Source: Candidatus Omnitrophota bacterium (GTDB lineage: Bacteria; Omnitrophota; Gorgyraeia; Gygaellales; Profunditerraquicolaceae). From it: 59,894 nt of DNA. Position 1 is the stretch's first letter, and every line of letters begins with the position of its first letter. The position numbers and the translations under genes are program-made. The DNA lies in assembly GCA_049517335.1 (NCBI GenBank), contig JBEKSD010000008.1, positions 1 through 59,894 of the forward strand, written 5' to 3'. Shown here in pieces: positions 3,891-56,669 of this stretch. The notes beneath the pieces are model-generated. The model did not search any database. It saw only the letters and a list, made by a program, of their open reading frames with translations, and was not told where the DNA came from.

Positions 3891-4606
3891 AGTAAATAAT
3901 CAGATTTAATGCGCTTGACGCTGCGGAATATGTTTGTCTTTACTTCCGGGCAGATTTTTTTCAAATCTTTGATAATTTCCGTCATCTTGCTCCTTGTAGA
4001 AGTTATGGAATTAGGGCAGGCGCATTTATGGTGCGGGAAAGAAAGTTTTTTGGCGAACTTTACAATCATATCTTCATCCACATAGGCCATCGGCCTGATT
4101 ATGGTAATTTTTCCTTTAAATAATTCCTGCTTCGGCTTCATCGCGGATATCTCACCCTGAAAGAACATATTCATCAGGATCGTTTCAATGATATCGTCCT
4201 GATGGTGTCCTAAGGCAACCTTGGTGCAGCCGAACCTGTCCGCCACCTGAAATAAAGTTTTCCTGCGGTTCCAGGAACACCAGAAACAGGAAATGTCTTT
4301 GCGCGTCTGGCCGGGCTTTAATATGTTTATTTTCTCAATATGGTACTCTACGCCCTCTTTCTTAAAATACTCAGTCAGTATTTTCGGATGCTGGCAGGGA
4401 TAGCCCATATCCACGTGCACAGCCAATAAATCATACTTAATCGGCACGAACTTCCTGCGCTCCTGCAGTATTTTAAGCAAGGTCAAACTGTCCTTACCGC
4501 CTGAGACCGCAACGCAAACCTTGTCCCCGTCGGAAAGCATCTTATAAGCCATAATCGCCTTGCCGACTTTTTTGGAGATATATAATTCAGCCCCGTTTAA
4601 TGACAT
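3887..4606 (-). CDS. ttcA: tRNA 2-thiocytidine biosynthesis protein TtcA
   Basis: PP-loop SGGKDS; CFWC, GHHQDD, IIRPM and CACP motifs. Confidence 0.9.
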   Translation of the reverse strand: MSLNGAELYISKKVGKAIMAYKMLSDGDKVCVAVSGGKDSLTLLKILQERRKFVPIKYDLLAVHVDMGYPCQHPKILTEYFKKEGVEYHIEKINILKPGQTRKDISCFWCSWNRRKTLFQVADRFGCTKVALGHHQDDIIETILMNMFFQGEISAMKPKQELFKGKITIIRPMAYVDEDMIVKFAKKLSFPHHKCACPNSITSTRSKMTEIIKDLKKICPEVKTNIFRSVKRIKSDYLL

Positions 4607-4953
4607 AAGTACCCCAATTTACGTAACTCTACCGTTGCTTTTTCCCGCTGGTCGCCCTGTAATTCTATAATGTTATCTTTTACCGAACCGCCAATGCCGA
4701 ATTGGCTTTTAAGCTGTTTTGCCAATACCAGTAATTTCTCTTCGCTTAAAGTTAAACTGGTAATCAGCGTAACACCTTTGCCCTTACGTCCGGCGACTTC
4801 ATAACTTAAACGCACCTTACCGTCTGTTTGCGGCAGCGCTTTTTTCTTCATCTGACGGCAAGCGCACTTTTCCCTTGGCTGCGAACACGCAGGACAAACC
4901 GGGCCGACTAACGTTGAATAAATTAAACGGGAATTTGAATTATTCTCTTCCAT
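4597..4953 (-). CDS. yciH: Translation initiation factor SUI1 / YciH
   Basis: LIYST, CPAC..C.C, GRKGKGVT, GGSVKD and IELQGD motifs. Confidence 0.92.
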   Translation of the reverse strand: MEENNSNSRLIYSTLVGPVCPACSQPREKCACRQMKKKALPQTDGKVRLSYEVAGRKGKGVTLITSLTLSEEKLLVLAKQLKSQFGIGGSVKDNIIELQGDQREKATVELRKLGYLCH

Positions 4954-4960
4954 AATTTAA

Positions 4961-5167
4961 TTATGGAATAATATTAATTTTCTGACCGCCAAACTCCACA
5001 ACATCCCCTGAACGAAGCTTGCGGCGGACACGTGATTCAACCAGCCCATTAACTTTAAGTGAGCCGGCCTGTATCTGCTGTTTGGCCTCAGCGCCGCTTA
5101 CAACGAGTTTCATCACCTTTAAAATATTATCCAGCTCAATAAAATCAGTATTTAGTTTAAAGTCCAC
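4961..5167 (-). CDS. S4-domain RNA-binding protein (YbcJ/YaaA family)
   Basis: IELDNILK, SGAEAK and VNG..E.R.RRKL motifs. Confidence 0.9.
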   Translation of the reverse strand: MDFKLNTDFIELDNILKVMKLVVSGAEAKQQIQAGSLKVNGLVESRVRRKLRSGDVVEFGGQKINIIP

Positions 5168-5180
5168 AATCGTTATCTCA

Positions 5181-5239
5181 AACAGGGGTCAGAGCCCTTT
5201 AAACCGTTAGGGACAATCCCCTTCGGGGACAGTCCCTAA
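5181..5239. repeat. REP-like GC-rich intergenic palindromes
   Basis: GGGGTCAGAGCC (also at 33297-33308) followed by the hairpin TTAGGGAC-AATCCCCTTCGGGGACA-GTCCCTAA. Confidence 0.55.
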
Positions 5240-6996
5240 ACCCTCCCCGAATCCTTGGCCATTTTTTTCATTTCCTTTACCACCTTATGCTCTAGCAGTT
5301 TCTCAAGCGAAATGGGTAAAGTCAAAGACCAATTCTTGTCGCTGATTGTGCCGGGAGTATTAAGACGGTTATCATACGGATCGCCCTTAAAGATATTCGC
5401 AGTATACAACCAGTCAATCAAAGTATTAATGCTGAATATTGAAGCTGAATCAAGGGTAATCTTGAGCGCTGCCTTCACAATTTCTTTATCGCACTTCTCG
5501 CGCATCTTTCCCTTTAATCCCATCTGCTTCCAAAGTTTCTCCTTTTCCCTAAAACTATTTAAGTATAAATCTATAAAATCACCGACTTCTTCTTTCTTTT
5601 TATCCAAGTTCCACACTAACTTATCAATCAAATCAATAGGATTTAGCCAGCGTAAGCGGCCGTGCTTTGATAAATTTAAGTCAAATAATTTTGGTTTTAC
5701 CTTATTAAAATTTATTCCACGCTCCATACATCTTCTGTAAAATAAATCTTCATCAATGGTACCTACCTCATTCTCCCACCATGCCGGCCAATTGGTCGTA
5801 TCATGCGTTGAAAGCATAGAAACGGAAAGTTTGCGGTATCCAGAAGGAGAAAGGAAATCGTACGCTACCTTCCAGTCTTTTACCCAGCGCTGGACATCGT
5901 TTCCGGGAATCCCTAAATCCTTTAAAGTATCGGTGCAGACGCGGGGGATTAACCCTAGATCCTCGGCGCACAAAAGCATACTCGTATTATTAAGCATTGT
6001 TTCTAAAATCGTACGGCCGTGAATACCCCATACTCCTTCATCGCCAGGGTCAAATAAACCGTTAAGCCCTTTATTTTCAAGCGGCTCATTATAAGGAATA
6101 CTCCAGATGCGGAATAGTCCTACTACGTGGTCAACCCTTAAAATATCATAGAAGTTTTGCGCGTATCTTAATTTCTCTGCCAAATACCTGAAACCGTCTT
6201 CCTTAATCTTATCCCAGTTATATGTCGGCATACCCCAACGTTGGCCCTTAGCGCAATACATATCTACGGGCGCTCCGGCAGCAAAATCAAGCTTAAAGAA
6301 CTTAGGATGACTCCAGACATCAGCGCTGTCACGCGAAACCAGTATCGGCAGGTCGCCTTTTAGGAAAATATTTTTGCTATTGGCGTAAATACGCGCGGCT
6401 CTTAATTGCTTAAAAAGCTTCCATTGCACCCACTCCTGAAATTCCAACTCTTTACTATGCTCATTTTTAAAAACCTCTAAAGCGCTTTTATCGCGGAACT
6501 TAAATTTATCTTCCCATTCATACCAGGCGCTGCCGTTATGATGAGCTTTTAACGCTTTATAGAGTGAGAATTCAGGCAGCCAGTATGAATTTTCTTTCCT
6601 GAAAAGAGAAAAATTCCCGGAATCCCTTTCTTTATCTGAGGTAAAAGACTGGAGTAAAATATTCAGCTTCTCTTCTTTTATTTTGTAATCTAGATAAGGA
6701 TAGGTAGGGTTACGCGTTTTTTGAGGGCTATCCAGATGAATATACGCGGGTTCAAGCGCGAATGAACTTAAAGAATCGTAAGGGCAAAAAAGTGCACCTA
6801 CTTCGTTAAGCGGCAAGAGTTGGATGATAGAATTTCCAGTTAGAGAAGCAAAATCAACCAGCAGTTTTAAATCCAAGAAATCCCCTATACCTAAACTATT
6901 TTTGGAATAAACCGAGAAAAGGGAAATGAGTATTCCCGCTCTTTTTTGCAGGCCTATGCGTTTCCACTTATCAGCTGACTTCGTATTTAACAGCAT
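5236..6996 (-). CDS. malQ: 4-alpha-glucanotransferase (GH77)
   Basis: QLLPLN, GDLP, GQRWGMP, RVDHVVG, AEDLG and STHD motifs. Confidence 0.93.
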   Translation of the reverse strand: MLLNTKSADKWKRIGLQKRAGILISLFSVYSKNSLGIGDFLDLKLLVDFASLTGNSIIQLLPLNEVGALFCPYDSLSSFALEPAYIHLDSPQKTRNPTYPYLDYKIKEEKLNILLQSFTSDKERDSGNFSLFRKENSYWLPEFSLYKALKAHHNGSAWYEWEDKFKFRDKSALEVFKNEHSKELEFQEWVQWKLFKQLRAARIYANSKNIFLKGDLPILVSRDSADVWSHPKFFKLDFAAGAPVDMYCAKGQRWGMPTYNWDKIKEDGFRYLAEKLRYAQNFYDILRVDHVVGLFRIWSIPYNEPLENKGLNGLFDPGDEGVWGIHGRTILETMLNNTSMLLCAEDLGLIPRVCTDTLKDLGIPGNDVQRWVKDWKVAYDFLSPSGYRKLSVSMLSTHDTTNWPAWWENEVGTIDEDLFYRRCMERGINFNKVKPKLFDLNLSKHGRLRWLNPIDLIDKLVWNLDKKKEEVGDFIDLYLNSFREKEKLWKQMGLKGKMREKCDKEIVKAALKITLDSASIFSINTLIDWLYTANIFKGDPYDNRLNTPGTISDKNWSLTLPISLEKLLEHKVVKEMKKMAKDSGRV

Positions 6997-36434: not shown

Positions 36435-39136
<2,702 letters not shown>

Positions 39137-39140
39137 TTAT

Positions 39141-39176
39141 AAAAAAACGTTTAGAGATAGAACTGCTCTCCAAACG
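39141..39176 (-). terminator. Intrinsic terminator-like hairpin inside the pyrG leader
   Basis: CGTTTGGAGA-9 nt-TCTCTAAACG followed by T7. Confidence 0.7.
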
Positions 39177-39210
39177 CCATTGTTTAAGCTATACTGTTTT
39201 CGCATAACAA

Positions 39211-39238
39211 ATTATACCAGAATTAATAGGATTGTCAA
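39211..39238 (-). promoter_or_regulatory. sigma70 promoter of pyrG-carAB
   Basis: TTGACA-16-TATAAT with a TG extension, overlapping the HD-GYP stop codon. Confidence 0.75.
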
Positions 39239-40563
39239 CCCCGCAACCTATTATCCTTTGAATCGGTATAAGGGTTAATATACCGTTCAATCTTAAGGGT
39301 ATTTTTAAGAGCCTTTAAATCCAGAACCTCACCACTGCCGTCAACCTCTACTTTTGGAAAAAATATGTCGTCTTCATTCTCTTCCTTTACCAAAGCAACC
39401 CTTCCATCGCTTAAAATGACCTTGGAGCCTATCGGCCAGACCCCCATTAAGCTGAAGAATCTGTCTAAAAGAACTGGTTCAAACGCCTTACCTTTATCCT
39501 TTAGCATGACTTCATAGATGGCTTGCGGCGGATAATCCGCCTTATATGACCTTCTGGAAGAAAGCGCGTCATACACATCGCATATGGAAACAATTAAACT
39601 TGCGATATGCATCTTACACGGGAAAGCGGGTTTAGGGTAGCCTGAGCGGTCATATTTCAGGTGATGCTCATAGGCCACTACAACCGGAAGCATCCCAAGG
39701 TTATCAATATACTCCAGCATAAGCTCAGCGCCTAGAATAACATGGTTCTTTATCTTGTCAAATTCCTGCTCGGTCAGTTTTCCGGCCTTACGGATGATTT
39801 TCCTTGAAATATAAATCTTGCCGATATCGTGAAATAAGGCGGCTGAGCCTATTTCACGCACCGTCTCTTTATTAAATCCTAAGCGCGCGGAAAAATACAT
39901 TGAGAGTATGGAAACGTTCAGGATATGGGAAAAAGTTTTTACGTCATAGCGCTGCACCGCCGCAAAATTCAGCAGTTCCTGGTACCTGCCTAAGAGATTA
40001 TCCATTATATTCTGGACCGAGAGCTGGAAAGCTATGTGGTCTAACTCTTCGGCATTTATGATGCTCTCTATGGATTTAGTGAATTCCTTTAAAGAATCGT
40101 CATAAAGGCTGAAATAATCTACTGCCTTGGTTATATCCTCGGACAAAACTCCGCCTGCCTTAATCTTTCCGGCAACTATGTTTTTTATGCCGCGCTCCGG
40201 CAGTTCCTTCTGCAGGTCCGGTTTTATTTCGTCCTTAAACGCCGCTAAAAAAGACACGAAGGCGGACAATTCCTCTTCTTTCAGGCCGCGATAAAAGACG
40301 ATCCGTTCTATCCCTTTTTGCTTTAAATAATGAATCATCGGCTTTGACCTTTTGCTTAAATCAAAGAAGATCTCATTTTCAAAAGCGAACTCCTCACCGA
40401 CAATACCTATGACAATCTCCTCTTTTTGGCTCAAGGCTTTATTAAGGCTTAAGTATGATTTTTCAATTCCCTTCTTGAATTGGGGATGCCAATCAGGATA
40501 AAGCCGCGACATCTGCATGGCTGACATCAGGTCTTTTATGGCCTCTTCAACTTCCTTTAACAT
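39235..40563 (-). CDS. HD-GYP domain phosphodiesterase
   Basis: H..NV, HDIGK, EHHLKYDRSGYP, DVYDAL and RRSYK motifs. Confidence 0.9.
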   Translation of the reverse strand: MLKEVEEAIKDLMSAMQMSRLYPDWHPQFKKGIEKSYLSLNKALSQKEEIVIGIVGEEFAFENEIFFDLSKRSKPMIHYLKQKGIERIVFYRGLKEEELSAFVSFLAAFKDEIKPDLQKELPERGIKNIVAGKIKAGGVLSEDITKAVDYFSLYDDSLKEFTKSIESIINAEELDHIAFQLSVQNIMDNLLGRYQELLNFAAVQRYDVKTFSHILNVSILSMYFSARLGFNKETVREIGSAALFHDIGKIYISRKIIRKAGKLTEQEFDKIKNHVILGAELMLEYIDNLGMLPVVVAYEHHLKYDRSGYPKPAFPCKMHIASLIVSICDVYDALSSRRSYKADYPPQAIYEVMLKDKGKAFEPVLLDRFFSLMGVWPIGSKVILSDGRVALVKEENEDDIFFPKVEVDGSGEVLDLKALKNTLKIERYINPYTDSKDNRLRG

Positions 40564-50392: not shown

Positions 50393-50598
50393 AGCTTAAT
50401 TATCCTTATTACTTCTCTTATCCCGGCGAAAAGACCTAGGCTGATAAGAATTGCCGTTGTGTAACCAGGCAAAGCTAATTTCTTAACCAGAAGCTCTCCG
50501 ATGATATAACCGGTCAGAGGAGCCCCTAAAAGAATAAAGGGGATAAAAGAAATCAGCCCGGCGATCTTAATGCGCCTGTAGAGCTCCTGTTTATCCAT
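50368..50598 (-). CDS. AtpZ/AtpI-family (ATPase gene 1) membrane protein
   Basis: Two TM helices (GYIIG..L; GLFAG); first gene of the atp operon. An alternative ATG lies at 50604. Confidence 0.75.
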   Translation of the reverse strand: MDKQELYRRIKIAGLISFIPFILLGAPLTGYIIGELLVKKLALPGYTTAILISLGLFAGIREVIRIIKLCIRNSQT

Positions 50599-50606
50599 TA
50601 ACATAA

Positions 50607-50648
50607 AAGGCGTCTCCCATCGGTAAGAGTTTCGATAAAGGACGCCTT
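50607..50648 (-). promoter_or_regulatory. Leader hairpin motif, copy 1 (atp operon)
   Basis: AAGGCGTC-CTTT-ATCG-loop-CGAT-GGGA-GACGCCTT; similar to 56254-56292. Confidence 0.6.
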
Positions 50649-50704
50649 AGTCCGCATAAACAACCCCTCATCAAGAGGTCAACATAAGATTAATTATATT
50701 TTTT

Positions 50705-50732
50705 ATTTTATCACTTCTTCCGTATATGTCAA
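50705..50732 (-). promoter_or_regulatory. sigma70 promoter of the atp operon
   Basis: TTGACA-16-TAAAAT with a TG extension. Confidence 0.7.
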
Positions 50733-50757
50733 ACACAAAAAATATCCTACTAGAAAA

Positions 50758-52740
50758 CTAAACTCTTATCGGCAGGATGACAAAAGGGATACCCCGGCGG
50801 TATAATTTCTTCTGGACGGTAAATACGGTGTGGTTGTGCAGTAAACGAAGCATAAAAGTGTCTTTGGGAAAGATTAACTGGCCGCCGAAGAAAACGGCAT
50901 TGGGGAAACGCTCGATTATTTCAGAGGAAGCTTTTTCAACCTCATCCACTACATCTACCCCCATCCGGAAAACCCCTTCGGCATAAAACCCCTGCCGCTG
51001 CATAAACTTTACGTAGCGGTCCAGTTCCGTTTTTGAATCTGACTCAAGGCGGCCGACTTCGGTTATCCCTTTAAAGTTACCCGCATCAAGCACCCCCACT
51101 TCAAGGAAGACAAAATTTTTAAAAACTCCGAAAAGCCGGATTACCCCAAAAAGCGTATGCAGCCCCATACCGTTAAAACCGCTGACTAAAAGCACGGCGG
51201 TCTTAGCTTTTCTGTCTGGGTTTCTTACCACCTCAAACTGCTCAGTGGTAAGCGGTTCAGCCGATTCAGTGACACTGACCAGATTATTAAGCCGGTGCAG
51301 AAGCTTGGTAGTATAAAAATAATGCCGTTTGGTAAAGACCGCTAATGTTATCAACGCACCGGTAATTAAAAATGTTATCCAACCGCCTTCCTTGAATTTC
51401 ATTATAACCATAGAACAAAGGATAAAAGTACACAAGACCAGACCGAAGCTGTTTACAAACAGCTTTTTAGCCCATTTCTTTACTTTCCAGCGGCTCTCCC
51501 ACCAATGCCGCACCATGCCCAATTGGGAAAGGATAAAGGTGATGAAAACATTTATACTATAAAGAACGACTAAGAATTGGATAGAACCGCGGGTAATGAA
51601 CATAATGAAAATAGCGAGCCCGCCCATGATTAAAATTCCGTTCTGAGTAACCAGGCGGTCGCTTAAGGTAGAAAACCTGGTAGGGAACCAGCGGTCTGTA
51701 GCCATGTTGGAAAGCACCCTTGGCCCGTCTAGGAAGCCCGTCTGAGCAGCGACGAAGAGTAATGATGCCTCGGCAAAAAGAGTCATAAGCACAAAAAAGT
51801 AGCCCCATCTCCAGGAGCTCGTGGCTTTCTCAAAAAGCGCGGCGTTTAAAGTCTTGCCCGGTTCATAAGTAACCGCATAAAGCAAATAAGAAATCATCAG
51901 CCCCAAAACAATAAAAGAAAGGGAAAATGCCATATAACGCATAGTTTTCTTGGCGGTCTCTACTTTAGGTTCCCTTAAAACCGGCACACCATTACTTACC
52001 GCTTCAATGCCGGTAAATGTACCGGCACCCATGCTATAAGCGCGTAATATTATGAAAATGACGCCGAAGAGCCCGAACTCCGATACGGAACGGCCCGTAT
52101 CCGCCTTGATAGAAGTAACCAAACCTGAAAGCCCCGGCAAATGCGTAGTAAAAGCGTAAAGGATAATGAAAAGATGGGTAATGATAAACGTAAGGAATAT
52201 CGGGGTCAGGATAAGCACCGACTCTTTTACTCCCCTCATATTCAAAAATATCAGGCAGACTATAACAAGAATGGCGAATCCAAGCTTATAAACAGTCCAA
52301 GGCAAAGGTAGGAGGCTGAATAGCGCATCAGTCCCGGCGGCAATGGAAACCGAAATAGTCAGGACATAATCTATGAGGAGGGCGCATCCTGATACCATGC
52401 CGATCGTGGGAGATAATAATTTACTGGCGACTATATAACCGCCGCCACCGTGCGGAAAAAGTTCAATAATCTGAGAGTAACTCGTTGCTATAACAAAAAT
52501 AGTAATAACTGTCCCTATGGCGACAAATATGCTTAAATAGGTGTGATGCTGCAGCGCAAGGAATGCCTCTGGAGGGCCGTAACAGGATGAGGAGAGCCCG
52601 TCGGCGCCTAAACCTATCCAGGCAAAAAAGGCGATAAGCGAAAGCTTATGAAAAATCGTGCGGTCCTGTGGATTGCGCGATTTCCCGATAAAGACATTTT
52701 TCAATCTTTGAAAAAACGTTGTTTTTTCTTCGTAATCCAT
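50758..52740 (-). CDS. APC-superfamily permease, KimA/YdaO-like (candidate K+/H+ symporter)
   Basis: DGLSSSCYGP, GGGGY, DYVLT..VS and TGIEAVSNGV motifs; soluble C-terminal domain. Confidence 0.8.
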   Translation of the reverse strand: MDYEEKTTFFQRLKNVFIGKSRNPQDRTIFHKLSLIAFFAWIGLGADGLSSSCYGPPEAFLALQHHTYLSIFVAIGTVITIFVIATSYSQIIELFPHGGGGYIVASKLLSPTIGMVSGCALLIDYVLTISVSIAAGTDALFSLLPLPWTVYKLGFAILVIVCLIFLNMRGVKESVLILTPIFLTFIITHLFIILYAFTTHLPGLSGLVTSIKADTGRSVSEFGLFGVIFIILRAYSMGAGTFTGIEAVSNGVPVLREPKVETAKKTMRYMAFSLSFIVLGLMISYLLYAVTYEPGKTLNAALFEKATSSWRWGYFFVLMTLFAEASLLFVAAQTGFLDGPRVLSNMATDRWFPTRFSTLSDRLVTQNGILIMGGLAIFIMFITRGSIQFLVVLYSINVFITFILSQLGMVRHWWESRWKVKKWAKKLFVNSFGLVLCTFILCSMVIMKFKEGGWITFLITGALITLAVFTKRHYFYTTKLLHRLNNLVSVTESAEPLTTEQFEVVRNPDRKAKTAVLLVSGFNGMGLHTLFGVIRLFGVFKNFVFLEVGVLDAGNFKGITEVGRLESDSKTELDRYVKFMQRQGFYAEGVFRMGVDVVDEVEKASSEIIERFPNAVFFGGQLIFPKDTFMLRLLHNHTVFTVQKKLYRRGIPFVILPIRV

Positions 52741-52762
52741 ATTAATTATTTTTTAGCGCGCC

Positions 52763-53176
52763 TTACGACCTGAACTCGGTTGACAAAACAATGCGCTCGA
52801 TGCCAACCTGCTTGGCTATATCCATCACCTTAACCACAAAATCGTATTTTACTTCTTTATCGCCGCTGATGGTAATGGCTGAGACATGCTTTTTTTTGGC
52901 AAGCGCTGCGAGCTTGAATCTTAAAAGGCCGAGGTCATACCTTAGGTTGTACTGGCTGTCTTCTAAGACCGCCCGGCCGTCTTCACTGATTGTGATGTCA
53001 ATATTTTGCGGGGGTTCCTGGGTTTGGGAAGCTCGGGGTAGCTGCACTTTTATGCCCGAACGAAAGAGCAACGGGGTGGTAACCATAAAAATAATCAAAA
53101 GGACGAGGATTACATCGGTAAAAGGTGTAATATTTATTTCTGAGACCAGTCTTTGGCTTCTGGACCTTCTTTTCAT
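52763..53176 (-). CDS. ExbD/TolR family protein
   Basis: EINITPFTDVILVLLIIFMV and GDKEVKY motifs. Confidence 0.93.
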   Translation of the reverse strand: MKRRSRSQRLVSEINITPFTDVILVLLIIFMVTTPLLFRSGIKVQLPRASQTQEPPQNIDITISEDGRAVLEDSQYNLRYDLGLLRFKLAALAKKKHVSAITISGDKEVKYDFVVKVMDIAKQVGIERIVLSTEFRS

Positions 53177-53803
53177 TTAGTGCTTTATGCAGAGCAAATC
53201 CATCAACTCAGACGCGCAGAGGTCCATATCGGCAACGAAGTTATCAATCCTGCGGATAAAATAATTATAGGTGATAACTGCCGGTATTGCTACCAATAGC
53301 CCTGCGGCAGTGCAGACTAGCGCCTCGGATATGCCGCCGATAACCACGCTGATGCCGCCTGCGCCGGCTGTGGAGATATCGTGAAAAGCCCGGATAATAC
53401 CTAAGACTGTGCCGAAAAGCCCGATGTATACGGCGGTACTTCCGATAGTCCCGACAATAGTGGTAAAGCGTTCCAATTTTATAGTTTCGATGGTAATCTC
53501 CCGTTCCATAGCTTCGGAGATGGCCTTCTCCTCATGGCCGGAGAGGATCAGCCCGGCTTGCGCAACTTTGGAAAACGGCGTGTCCACCTGGCGGCAGATC
53601 TCTACTGCCCGGGAAGCCCTTCCGGCGTTAAGTTCGGATTTAACGCTTTTTATAAAGTCTACTCTCTTTACGCGGGATTGCCTTCTGTAATAGATAATCC
53701 TTTCTAAAATTACCGCCAGAGAAAGGATAGAACAAAATAGAAGCACATACATGGCAAATCCGCCTGTATGAATTACCGCCCAGATAGTCTGTCCTCTAAA
53801 CAT
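53177..53803 (-). CDS. MotA/TolQ/ExbB proton channel protein
   Basis: GLFGTVLGII.AF and ISEALVCTAAGL.VAIPA motifs. Confidence 0.93.
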   Translation of the reverse strand: MFRGQTIWAVIHTGGFAMYVLLFCSILSLAVILERIIYYRRQSRVKRVDFIKSVKSELNAGRASRAVEICRQVDTPFSKVAQAGLILSGHEEKAISEAMEREITIETIKLERFTTIVGTIGSTAVYIGLFGTVLGIIRAFHDISTAGAGGISVVIGGISEALVCTAAGLLVAIPAVITYNYFIRRIDNFVADMDLCASELMDLLCIKH

Positions 53804-53860
53804 TGCCGCTCCTTAATTTAACCTGCAACCCTATTATATCAGAAAAAAACCTAAATTAGC

Positions 53861-56194
53861 CTATTTTTTAATTTCGCAAGGTTTGGCTTCCGGAGTAGTT
53901 TTTTTGCTCTGCCGGATGGCCAAAACTAAACCAATGCATAATAAAATCACCACGATATCCTTACCCAAACTGGGGCGGTTATACTGGACAATTATGGGAG
54001 CGATGATAACCGAGATTAAATTAACTACTTTGATCATCGGGTTTAGCGCCGGGCCCGCGGTATCTTTTAACGGGTCACCCACAGTATCCCCTACTACACT
54101 GGCCTTATGCCTTTCCGAACCCTTACCGCGATTCTCGGATATTTCTATTATTTCATCTTCAATTGTTTTCTTGGCATTATCCCAAGCCCCACCGGCATTG
54201 GACATAAACACGGCTAATAACTGGCCTGAAAGGATTATGCCGGCGAGGAATCCACCTAGTGCCTCAACCTGCAGAACTAAACCGGCAACTATAGGAGCAA
54301 CTATGCTTAAGAATGCCAGGCTGATCAACTCCTTCTGTGCTGCCGCAGTAGAAATTGCCACGCACTGCTTGTAATCAGGTTTTACTTTTCCTTCCAAGAC
54401 ACCTAAACGGAACTGACGGCGCACTTCTTCAACGATCAAAGAAGCGGCGCGGCTTACCGCCTGGATTGAAAAGGAAGAAAATAGCCAGGGGAGCGCTCCA
54501 CCGATAAGCATGCCTACAAAGACCTGCGGCACGGAAACGCGTATACCCAATGTATTCAGCTGTTCTGATAAAGGTATGCCCAAAGAACCCTGGACAGCGC
54601 TGACATCAACCATATAAGAACCGAATAGTGAAACAGCGGCAATTACCGCCGAGCCTATGGCTACGCCTTTGGTAATAGCCTTGGTGGTGTTTCCGACAGC
54701 GTCAAGGTCCGCCATAATCTGCTTGGCTGACTTTGTCTCTAGATCTGTCTGCCCGTGCCAGGCCATTTCGCCTATACCATTGGCATTGTCGGCAATAGGC
54801 CCGAATGAATCCATCGCCACGTTGTTGCCGGTAAGCGTAAGCATACCGATACCGGTCATTGCTACACCGTAAAGAATATAGGTAATTTTAGCGGCGCCGG
54901 TAACCCCGGGTACGCTTCCAAAAATCATAATTGATGCGAATATTGTTGCAGCAACTACCAGAATTGCCCAAACACTTGATTCATAACCTACAGATAACCC
55001 AGATAAAATCGTGGTTGCCGCACCGGTTGAAGTAGACTTTCTTATTTCCTGGACCGGTTTTCCGTGAGTGCCGGTAAAATATTCGGTCAAACGGTCTATG
55101 CATATAGCTAAGATTACGCCCACGGTAGTTGCCATAAACGGCCTCCACCATCCACCGGGCATATTTTTCATATAGAAGAAAGCAAGGACCCCAAAGGCTA
55201 CCACAGAAATGACTGCAGAAGTAAGGTATCCCTTAAAGATCGCTTTCATTGCGTTACCGACTTTTGAAGAAGTGCTCTTGACCGCGTAAGTACCGATTAT
55301 GGAGCAAAGAACGCCGATACCGCGCACAAGTAAAGGATAAACTATCCATTCTAGGCGATGGGTTAAATGGTATAAAGCCAGACCTAAGATCAACCCGGAA
55401 ACAATAGTAACTTCGTATGACTCAAAAATATCCGCAGCCATACCTGCGCAGTCGCCGACATTATCCCCGACTAAATCCGCGATAACAGCAGGGTTGCGCG
55501 GGTCGTCCTCGGGAATTCCCGCTTCAACTTTACCTACGAGGTCAGCTCCGACGTCAGCTGCCTTGGTGTAAATCCCGCCTCCAACACGCATAAATAATGC
55601 CAGCAGCGTCCCACCAAAACCAAATCCCAATAAAGCATCGGGCGCGGCAATGCCAAAAATTATGAATATAACTGTACCACCGAATAAACCCAGGCCATCG
55701 GTAAGCATACCGGTAATTGTCCCCGCGCGGTAAGCTATCCTTAAAGCATCTCCGAAAGAACGCCTGGCGGCAGATGCAACGCGAACGTTGGCCTGCACTG
55801 CCATGCGCATACCAAGCTGCCCGACCAACAAAGAAAATAAAGCACCCATGACAAATGCCATTGCCCGGCCAATACCGATAATTAAACGTACCGCTGATTC
55901 ACCTTGGCCGGCAAACCGCTGCATTGCTTCCTGCGACGGCGGGACGATATAAACAGAAAAGAATAAAGCAAAAGTCAGGATACCGATCAAAGGCAGGATC
56001 GTTTTTAACTGTTTCTGCAAGTATGCATCCGCGCCTTCACGTATTGCACCCCAGACTTCCAACATCTTAGGGGTCCCCTTATCTTCGCGTAAGATCTGGC
56101 GGCGAAGAAAAAGCGCATAAAGTAAACCCAAAATCGCTACACCTAAAACACTCCAAATCGCAAACTGCTCAAAAATACTAAGCCCGTAAACCAT
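53861..56194 (-). CDS. hppA: Membrane pyrophosphatase, K+-independent H+-translocating type
   Basis: GGGIYTKAADVGADLVGK, DNVGD and GDTVGDP motifs; GNTTKA (Lys marks K+-independent enzymes); start MVYGLS after SD AGGAG/AAGGA. Confidence 0.93.
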   Translation of the reverse strand: MVYGLSIFEQFAIWSVLGVAILGLLYALFLRRQILREDKGTPKMLEVWGAIREGADAYLQKQLKTILPLIGILTFALFFSVYIVPPSQEAMQRFAGQGESAVRLIIGIGRAMAFVMGALFSLLVGQLGMRMAVQANVRVASAARRSFGDALRIAYRAGTITGMLTDGLGLFGGTVIFIIFGIAAPDALLGFGFGGTLLALFMRVGGGIYTKAADVGADLVGKVEAGIPEDDPRNPAVIADLVGDNVGDCAGMAADIFESYEVTIVSGLILGLALYHLTHRLEWIVYPLLVRGIGVLCSIIGTYAVKSTSSKVGNAMKAIFKGYLTSAVISVVAFGVLAFFYMKNMPGGWWRPFMATTVGVILAICIDRLTEYFTGTHGKPVQEIRKSTSTGAATTILSGLSVGYESSVWAILVVAATIFASIMIFGSVPGVTGAAKITYILYGVAMTGIGMLTLTGNNVAMDSFGPIADNANGIGEMAWHGQTDLETKSAKQIMADLDAVGNTTKAITKGVAIGSAVIAAVSLFGSYMVDVSAVQGSLGIPLSEQLNTLGIRVSVPQVFVGMLIGGALPWLFSSFSIQAVSRAASLIVEEVRRQFRLGVLEGKVKPDYKQCVAISTAAAQKELISLAFLSIVAPIVAGLVLQVEALGGFLAGIILSGQLLAVFMSNAGGAWDNAKKTIEDEIIEISENRGKGSERHKASVVGDTVGDPLKDTAGPALNPMIKVVNLISVIIAPIIVQYNRPSLGKDIVVILLCIGLVLAIRQSKKTTPEAKPCEIKK

Positions 56195-56243
56195 TTCTTT
56201 TTTCCTTCTCCTTAAATTAGTTGGGTTAAATTTTGGAAGCGCT

Positions 56244-56292
56244 AAAAAAAATAAGGCGCACTCCACGAGACCTTCTTCAATGAAGGACGCCT
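56244..56292 (-). promoter_or_regulatory. Leader hairpin motif, copy 2 (hppA), followed by a U-tract
   Basis: AGGCGTCCTTCAT-loop-GTGGAGTGCGCCT followed by TATTTTTTTT. Confidence 0.6.
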
Positions 56293-56307
56293 CTAAAATT
56301 GTAAAAT

Positions 56308-56335
56308 ATTATAGCTGTTATTTTTTAATTGTCAA
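56308..56335 (-). promoter_or_regulatory. sigma70 promoter of hppA
   Basis: Perfect TTGACA-16-TATAAT. Confidence 0.75.
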
Positions 56336-56669
56336 GTACCTTGTGTAGTTCGAAAATAAAACGCTGCCTGTGTAAATATTAGGTACAATTGTATCTTTGG
56401 TTAAAGAGCAATTAAAGATTTTATCAGACTATTCGGAAAGCGCAAACTCCAGATTTGCTCTCTCTTAAGAACTGGTAGAACTTTATAGGGGGCAGGTTAG
56501 CTATAAATGCTTTCACGCCTAAAGTAATTCTTAAGATAATTTGTCCTTTTTGTCCGCTTTTTTAAAGCCTCAAATTACGTAACTATTTGATATACAATAA
56601 GTTACGAATAAATAGTGCCTGAGACTATGACATTAACTCGTAAGTTCATTGGTTTGCAACTTCGCGGGG

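Follow-up and report, generated by a model that had tools for sequence, protein, structure and literature searches.

Among described regulatory RNAs, the closest to the elements analysed here are the targets of ANTAR-domain antiterminators. In the passages of Ramesh et al. 2012 (PMC3369931) that deal with them, the ANTAR substrate is described as small, short-stemmed hairpins whose hexanucleotide loops have conserved A and G at positions 1 and 4, respectively (A1 and G4 below), the loop-bearing hairpin overlaps an intrinsic terminator, and the predicted targets are overwhelmingly nitrogen genes, namely those for P-II, ammonium transporters and glutamine synthetase. A later crystal structure redefined the minimal motif as a single hexaloop, according to the passage of PMC8934654 concerned. 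Of the one-component ANTAR class, which includes the GAF-ANTAR proteins, two representatives have been characterised; the relevant passage of PMC7496416 describes PAL, and the subject of that paper is NasR. Here we analysed two leader hairpins in a 59,894-nt stretch (the window) of contig JBEKSD010000008.1 from a 1.45-Mb Omnitrophota genome, one preceding the F-type ATP synthase (atp) operon and the other preceding hppA, the gene for a membrane pyrophosphatase. We consider both to be promoter-proximal intrinsic terminators, or attenuators, of one family-wide class that is most likely controlled by an ANTAR protein, a reading to which we give a probability of about 60%. On this reading, the two leaders are not a new riboswitch; the kind of switch is known, and its targets are what is new.

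Direct reading of the sequence confirmed what a preliminary description had reported for the two leaders, i.e., both hairpins, promoters and U-tracts (Table 1), the agreement of 15 of 17 bases between the 5' arms, and a GGGAG (50618-50614) inside the 3' arm of the atp hairpin, 9 nt 5' of the ATG. The atp hairpin is composed of 8 bp, a C/A mismatch, 7 bp and a 10-nt loop, is followed by UUUU and then AUGUU, and folds at about -15.5 kcal/mol by itself. The hppA hairpin is composed of 6 bp, a C/U mismatch, 6 bp and a 13-nt loop, is followed by UA and U8, and begins approximately 15 nt past the -10 box. At both places a stable GC-rich hairpin and a U-tract predict an intrinsic terminator, and the fold of each 81-nt stretch is more stable than those of its shuffled versions (z -2.6). 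The view that both hairpins are cis-acting leader elements behind strong promoters is supported by these features.

The likeness of the two arms is beyond chance. When written with Y at the two differing places, the 17-mer has exactly two copies in the window and no others at up to two mismatches; at up to three mismatches there are three window matches, compared with 0.55 expected. At up to one mismatch, three copies were found in the whole genome, the third inside an open reading frame (ORF). A genome-wide scan limited to intergenic DNA yielded 313 terminator-like hairpins, of which six had the stem start G[GA]CGU[CU], which shows that it is not the generic terminator stem of this organism. 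We also searched 234 genomes of the order for the 17-mer pattern (up to two mismatches), in which matches were no commoner than those of a reversed control and no exact copy was present outside the source genome. Since this search returned background only, a covariance model was required. Model R1 was built from the atp leader hairpins of 31 relatives, with no sequence of the source genome inside. When R1 was run on the window with filters off, the atp (27.7 bits) and hppA (22.7 bits) leaders were the top two matches, and the next one scored 12.2 bits.

Conservation of the element was analysed in DNA located 5' of atpB in 77 relatives; the source genome is the sole representative of its genus among the genomes compared. 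An R1 element was found at no fewer than 42 of these 77 atp loci (at least 42, including the 31 training rows), and in many genera a hairpin followed by 5-8 U is located just 5' of atpZ, behind a near-consensus promoter at the position equivalent to that in the window. In the 31-row alignment, 80.7% of cells pair, compared with about 40-48% in slid controls, and both partners vary at 10 of 14 pairs. At one position all rows pair, 19 with AU and 12 with GC, and none of 500 shuffles reached the observed score. The nearest relatives, G020 and G100, have no atp leader, and their atpZ abuts an upstream permease gene.

The hairpins showed a second conserved feature, a small hairpin that overlaps the terminator. 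Among 82 distinct R1 places (35 non-atp, 42 atp and 5 in the source genome), 43 had a stem of at least 4 bp (4-8 bp) with a loop of exactly six nucleotides in one fixed register, such that the terminator stem begins with the last three loop bases and the 3' stem of the small hairpin. Other loop lengths (3-5 and 7-9) were seen at that register in 0-3 cases, and shuffled flanks gave a mean of 2.2 and a maximum of 6 hexaloop hairpins per 82 places. G4 was present in 46 of 47 hexaloops, A3 in 35 and A1 in 23. The hexaloop hairpin was found at 30 of the 35 non-atp places, 14 of the 42 atp places and 3 of the 5 places in the source genome. Its stems covary (GGAC/GUCC, AGAC/GUCU and AAAC/GUUU), and the covariation extends over three positions, i.e., the 5' stem of the putative antiterminator, the shared base and the 3' arm of the terminator, which read A-U-A in 23 and G-C-G in 14 of the 82 places. 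Covariation of the shared base with both partners is what is expected if the two helices are mutually exclusive.

We then examined which genes follow the element. R1 matches were present in 124 of 151 family genomes (E<=0.05), many of them without an atp operon. In the source genome, besides the two leaders of the window, R1 detected three leader hairpins on contig C9 (35.9, 24.8 and 22.4 bits). These occur in two leaders, one before the gene for a 174-aa GerE/sigma-region-4-like protein, and the other before a gene for an amino-acid-permease-P-II fusion, the first gene of a cluster in which a porin, two amt genes and P-II also occur. A further match, C2:131563-131614, was antisense inside an ORF and was taken as false. 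At 20 high-scoring non-atp R1 places picked by hand, the first downstream ORFs included 9 small sigma-like/GerE proteins, 4 P-II proteins, 2 glutamine-dependent NAD synthetases, 2 BBP2 porins, 2 Gcw_chp proteins, and one each of Amt, glutamine synthetase type III, the permease-P-II fusion, a NuoE-like ferredoxin and an unknown protein. When the source genome was scanned for upstream hairpins of any kind (stem of at least 4 bp) that overlap a terminator, the result was non-discriminating, with 63-76 matches at every loop length from 4 to 8, and the informative scan was the strict hexaloop-plus-terminator form alone (NNA[CU]-NNNGRY-GUNN). It gave 12 matches, which included atp, glnA, CTP synthase (window 39187-39141), a Fis-type helix-turn-helix protein, the sigma-like gene (two matches) and the permease-P-II fusion.

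Several of these genes and leaders have features of their own. The 174-aa protein is a candidate dedicated sigma factor and is itself located behind two attenuators. The fusion consists of an APC-type amino-acid permease and a C-terminal P-II domain (622 aa; L129, i.e., C9:12000-24000, positions 4231-6099) and is conserved in relatives (L145). The leader of pyrG (CTP synthase, 37514-39136), located at 39141-39241 on the minus strand of the window, has a TTGACA-17-TATAAT promoter and a UUAAAC-AAUGGC-GUUUGG hexaloop hairpin (A1, G4) that overlaps a terminator with U7, the start codon coming 12 nt later; pyrG probably belongs to the same regulon. Besides, leaders of nitrogen genes have a conserved upstream motif, GGTTACCA-N15/16-TTTTTACTTGTAGTA, which resembles a non-sigma-70 promoter and was observed at about 4020-4060 of L129 and in relatives (L131, L135-L137, L139 and L146).

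The distribution of ANTAR genes was analysed next to that of the element. The source genome has exactly one, coding for a 240-aa GAF-ANTAR protein (C9:4101-4823; PF03861, 62.5-65.4 bits), and ANTAR was found in 182 of 204 family genomes. In 9 of 78 atp loci, an orthologue (73-82% identity) ends 19-265 nt 5' of atpZ in the same orientation, and in a tenth, L046, which has no atpZ, it is located just 5' of the atp leader hairpin and atpB. In several of these loci the R1 hairpin lies between the ANTAR orthologue and the atp genes. In 77 loci from public Omnitrophota assemblies, the gene that follows the orthologue was sigma-like in 22, atpZ in 3, hydrogenase-like NuoL in 3, amt in 1 and unassigned in 48. 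Thirteen of the 22 sigma-like leaders contained two A1/G4 hexaloop hairpins 8-24 nt apart (1.2 expected from shuffles), the second of which overlaps the terminator. Downstream of the ANTAR gene in the source genome come a promoter, then a terminator overlapped by an AGAC-AUAGAA-GUCU hairpin, and then a Proton_antipo_M gene, the first of a hydrogenase-like operon (NADHdh and HycI further on). Among the matches listed, dozens of R1 sites were within a few hundred bases of ANTAR genes when coordinates were compared by eye.

In the atp leader of the window, the candidate antiterminator GGAC-UAAGGC-GUCC follows the rule of the class: its last three loop bases and 3' stem form the 5' base of the terminator. 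It is present in the minimum-free-energy (MFE) fold of the transcript prefix, before the 3' arm of the terminator is made, and the C9 leader of the sigma-like gene contains an identical hairpin. The atp leader folds at -29.7 kcal/mol when it contains the terminator, compared with -19.6 kcal/mol when the hexaloop hairpin is forced. This difference of approximately 10 kcal/mol suggests that the RNA by itself should terminate. A further hairpin is located 8 nt 5' of the hexaloop hairpin, and relatives have a terminator-like or hexaloop hairpin at its position. Downstream, the atpZ-like ORF is followed by atpB, atpE, atpF, atpH and atpA (PF00119 and PF00137; ORF list).

These features suggest the following mechanism. 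The small six-base-loop hairpin would form first on the nascent RNA. Since its loop and 3' stem are the first approximately seven bases of the terminator stem, the two structures would exclude each other, and unaided the terminator would win. The GAF-ANTAR protein may bind the hexaloop if the ligand state of its GAF domain permits, and this state could report nitrogen or energy status; the bound protein would hold the small hairpin and block the terminator, and RNA polymerase would read into the operon. At atp, the predicted terminator reaches up to the start codon and covers the likely Shine-Dalgarno sequence GGGAG, so that antitermination would also release translation.

The hppA leader is different. 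We suggest that it is a diverged copy of the terminator that has lost the canonical overlapping hairpin, probably because the promoter sits too close. The alternative CCUUC/GAAGG pairing noted in the preliminary description is real and nearly isoenergetic with the terminator (-16.1 versus -17.8 kcal/mol). Its 5' stem is the upper 5' arm of the terminator and it takes up part of the terminator loop, a geometry that differs from that of the class. The AUUGAA loop is also the loop of the upstream hairpin in nitrogen-gene leaders of relatives, and the hairpin as an ANTAR site is suggestive but post hoc. Thus, hppA may respond to the same protein through a single hexaloop, or the terminator may merely damp a strong promoter.

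Conservation upstream of orthologues, which had been expected for both genes, was observed for atp (before atpZ, with covariation) and not for hppA. The orthologous hppA type was present in 7 of 40 relatives. In four of them hppA directly follows exbD, in L004 it has its own promoter and no terminator, and in L008 it is located about 90 nt after atpC with no terminator. The sole case of a leader terminator among the seven was G020, in which the promoter is kept and the terminator is of a different sequence type, still scoring 22.5 bits with R1. With one leader terminator in seven orthologues, and that of another sequence, the motif is not specific to hppA. In relatives G001-G040, two types of membrane pyrophosphatase were seen, a minority type of 760-790 aa, 70-87% identical to that of the window, and a shorter type (about 700 aa; identity to that of the window about 46%), which occurs in most genomes; some genomes have both.

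Table 1. Coordinates of leader features and first genes in the window.
Feature	Position	Strand	Details
atp promoter-like site	50705..50732	-	TTGACA 50732-50727, 16-nt spacer, TAAAAT 50710-50705; read directly
atp upstream leader hairpin, GACCUCUU..GAGGGGUU	50662..50680	-	MFE fold of leader
atp candidate antiterminator hairpin, GGAC-UAAGGC-GUCC	50640..50653	-	4-bp stem, hexaloop with G at position 4
atp terminator-like hairpin, AAGGCGUC-C-UUUAUCG / CGAUGGG-A-GACGCCUU	50648-50607; UUUU 50608-50605	-	fold; R1 27.7 bits
atpZ-like first gene of F-type ATP synthase operon, 78 aa	50368..50604; ATG 50604	-	PF09527 (ATPase_gene1/AtpZ), 24.6 bits, below the 26.6 cut-off
hppA promoter-like site	56308..56335	-	TTGACA 56335-56330, 16-nt spacer, TATAAT 56313-56308; read directly
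hppA leader terminator hairpin, AGGCGU-C-CUUCAU / GUGGAG-U-GCGCCU	56292-56254; U8 56251-56244	-	fold; R1 22.7 bits
hppA alternative hairpin, CCUUC-AUUGAA-GAAGG	56271..56286	-	hexaloop with A1 and G4; forced fold
hppA, membrane pyrophosphatase, 777 aa	53861..56194; ATG 56194	-	PF03030, 804.8 bits

Several observations weigh against ANTAR control of these two leaders. At atp of the source genome, the U-tract is four U before AUG, compared with 5-8 U in relatives, so termination there may be weak, and the element may act by hiding GGGAG as much as by termination. The atp hexaloop, UAAGGC, has G4 but U rather than A at position 1, and the hairpin upstream of it, with a loop of 3-7 nt depending on register, is not a second hexaloop. 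Furthermore, 28 of the 42 atp-leader matches, largely those of one large genus, keep the terminator and lack a hexaloop hairpin at the register, and the upstream hairpin of these 28 leaders mostly has A, not G, at loop position 4. In the atp leaders of this largest genus, no hexaloop antiterminator was detected at the class register. The structures seen in these leaders were a 7-bp stem that closes a 7-nt loop, present in three sequences, and an upstream hairpin whose register is ambiguous. At hppA, there is no overlapping hairpin at the class register, the sole competitor being the internal CCUUC-AUUGAA-GAAGG, so that the leader has one hexaloop hairpin rather than two, and its R1 score corresponds to a genome-wide E of 0.29. 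The single ANTAR gene of the source genome adjoins neither atp nor hppA and precedes the hydrogenase-like operon on another contig. Finally, six genomes had R1 matches but no ANTAR match, the assemblies being incomplete. Taking these points together with the evidence above, we put ANTAR control at roughly two in three for atp and at less than even for hppA.

The alternative that survives best is that these are real leader terminators controlled by something other than ANTAR, or by nothing: constitutive dampers, attenuation sensitive to NTPs or dependent on NusA/NusG, or targets of another RNA-binding protein, with the hppA copy a duplicated terminator without a switch. Terminators behind promoters are indeed a general habit of the source genome. 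A promoter-like site was found no more than 220 nt upstream of about 30 of its 313 terminator-like hairpins (for example, C10:7135, C11:31156, C3:27754 and C23:6408), and promoter-proximal terminators seem to be a common regulatory device there beyond the class discussed here. The missing class antiterminator at hppA and in the 28 atp leaders fits this explanation as well, and so does the fact that many leaders carry two terminators in tandem, since one small hairpin cannot override both. Like ordinary Rho-independent terminators, the elements have a GC-rich stem followed by a U-run; unlike them, they are located behind promoters and directly before start codons, and their stem sequence is conserved across genera. 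However, a fixed-register hexaloop, a near-invariant G4 and three-way covariation are hard to explain without a factor that reads them, and the genes involved, like the surroundings of the ANTAR genes, match ANTAR in particular. We therefore regard control by something else, or by nothing, as rather unlikely, though it is the strongest competitor of ANTAR control.

Na+ (DUF1646 motif) and Li+ (nhaA-I) riboswitches are located upstream of ion-transport genes, and in some bacteria also upstream of those for ATP synthase. The leaders analysed here resemble them in being leader RNAs with a terminator as expression platform before ion-motive machinery, and the preliminary description had proposed a new metabolite or ion riboswitch (for pH, Na+, K+, PPi, ATP or c-di-AMP) with two expression platforms, dedicated to primary proton pumps. 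In line with its description of the hairpin as unrecognised, no Rfam family matched. A cmscan of the window against Rfam 15 at gathering thresholds detected three tRNAs and nothing else, a permissive scan of 50400-56600 gave no match at either leader at E<=10, including DUF1646, nhaA-I/II and crcB, and nothing near a gathering score was found in 25 related loci, among them 20 atp leader loci of relatives and the related C9 leaders. To the extent that covariance models can decide it, neither leader belongs to the Na+, Li+ or fluoride families. The lack of an Rfam match would suit a new riboswitch, mutually exclusive structures do exist here, and some riboswitch aptamers are small.

Nevertheless, a riboswitch of this kind now appears improbable. 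Conserved sequence is confined to the terminator arms and the 14-20-nt hexaloop hairpin, terminator loops and linkers vary freely, and the leaders have no aptamer-sized conserved structure and no conserved internal-loop aptamer of the Na+/Li+ type; the conserved part is a terminator and a small hexaloop hairpin overlapping it. The shared competitor hairpin is missing from the hppA copy. The notion of two expression platforms was overstated, as both hairpins are terminator-like and the one at atp additionally covers the likely ribosome-binding site. Genes for ion transport and bioenergetics had been expected downstream of family-wide matches, but many of the genes found belong to nitrogen metabolism, and the element precedes P-II, amt, glutamine synthetase, NAD synthetase, porin and regulator genes far more often than ion pumps. 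The motif does recur elsewhere, which had been named as the mark of a generic repeat or terminator; the other positions are non-random, however, and all are sense-strand leaders. That the inverted repeat is a DNA operator, at which a dimeric repressor blocks the promoter-proximal region, is very improbable: although the arm sequence is conserved with a free loop and the hppA repeat starts about 15 bp past the -10 box, a U-run follows virtually every copy, frequent G-U pairs would break DNA symmetry (at one pair, 16 rows have UA and 13 have UG), and the overlapping hexaloop hairpin and three-way covariation make sense in RNA only.

Attenuation by an ANTAR protein is consistent with most of what is described for such targets. 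As in EutV/eut of Enterococcus, NasR/nasF and AmiR/ami, as far as the relevant passages of PMC3369931 describe them, the elements are small hexaloop hairpins with conserved G4 and often A1 that overlap an intrinsic terminator and are mutually exclusive with it, several attenuators occur per genome, and targets centre on P-II, ammonium transporters and glutamine synthetase. An ANTAR-domain protein is likewise encoded in the same genome, often beside a target. Differences were also observed. Unlike described targets, the elements mostly have a single hexaloop hairpin, in a fixed register with the last three loop bases in the terminator stem, their stems are 4-8 bp rather than about 3, and tandem terminators are frequent. 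The regulator would be a one-component GAF-ANTAR protein, a class that is largely uncharacterised according to the passage of PMC7496416 concerned. Candidate targets here include the F-type ATP synthase operon, the membrane pyrophosphatase and a hydrogenase-like operon. In the full-text literature, we found no paper tying ANTAR to Omnitrophota, to ATP synthase control or to the other two of these targets, although the supplementary target tables of PMC3369931 could include such cases.

If ANTAR control is correct, the tempting annotation as a new riboswitch is replaced by a testable protein-dependent mechanism, and model R1 provides a handle on a large attenuator regulon in an uncultivated phylum, outside Rfam coverage. 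Control of the ATP synthase operon would extend the reach of ANTAR proteins from nitrogen and ethanolamine use to core bioenergetics, and the leaders would offer a defined natural set of single-hexaloop targets for characterising the poorly studied GAF-ANTAR class. A broader and more tentative idea is that one GAF-ANTAR protein (about 75-85% identity across Omnitrophota), acting on at least 10 single-hexaloop, often tandem, attenuators per genome, couples nitrogen assimilation to energy conservation, with the GAF domain reading, for example, 2-oxoglutarate or adenylate. The nitrogen side would include P-II, amt, glutamine synthetases, NAD and CTP synthetases and the small sigma-like factor, and the energy side the F-type ATP synthase, membrane pyrophosphatase and group-4-like hydrogenase. 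If true, this would constitute a global nitrogen-energy regulon acting at the RNA level, a kind for which ANTAR proteins have no described precedent, and a hint that these very small cells switch ATP synthesis jointly with nitrogen assimilation.

Additional repeated sequences were observed in and around leaders. A conserved insert of about 40 nt, (GCCCACAAGGGCAC)ACCAAACAAUCC-N-AUAUGUUUGGGUG, itself a hairpin, is located between two terminators, sometimes twice (L088, L108, L132, L142, L143, L149 and L141), and looks like a small mobile or repeated element. Long perfect palindromes, TAGGGACAGCGAC...GTCGCTGTCCCTA, recur in intergenic DNA 5' of promoters in a REP-like manner (L045, L090, L109 and others) and account for spurious Rfam matches to microRNA families. 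In the source genome, a repeat of about 45 nt that starts GGGCGTCCTCACGGGAG...AAATTTACCAATAGCTGTGT is present on at least five contigs (C1:52235, C2:113623, C7:5878, C11:34185 and C28:1222).

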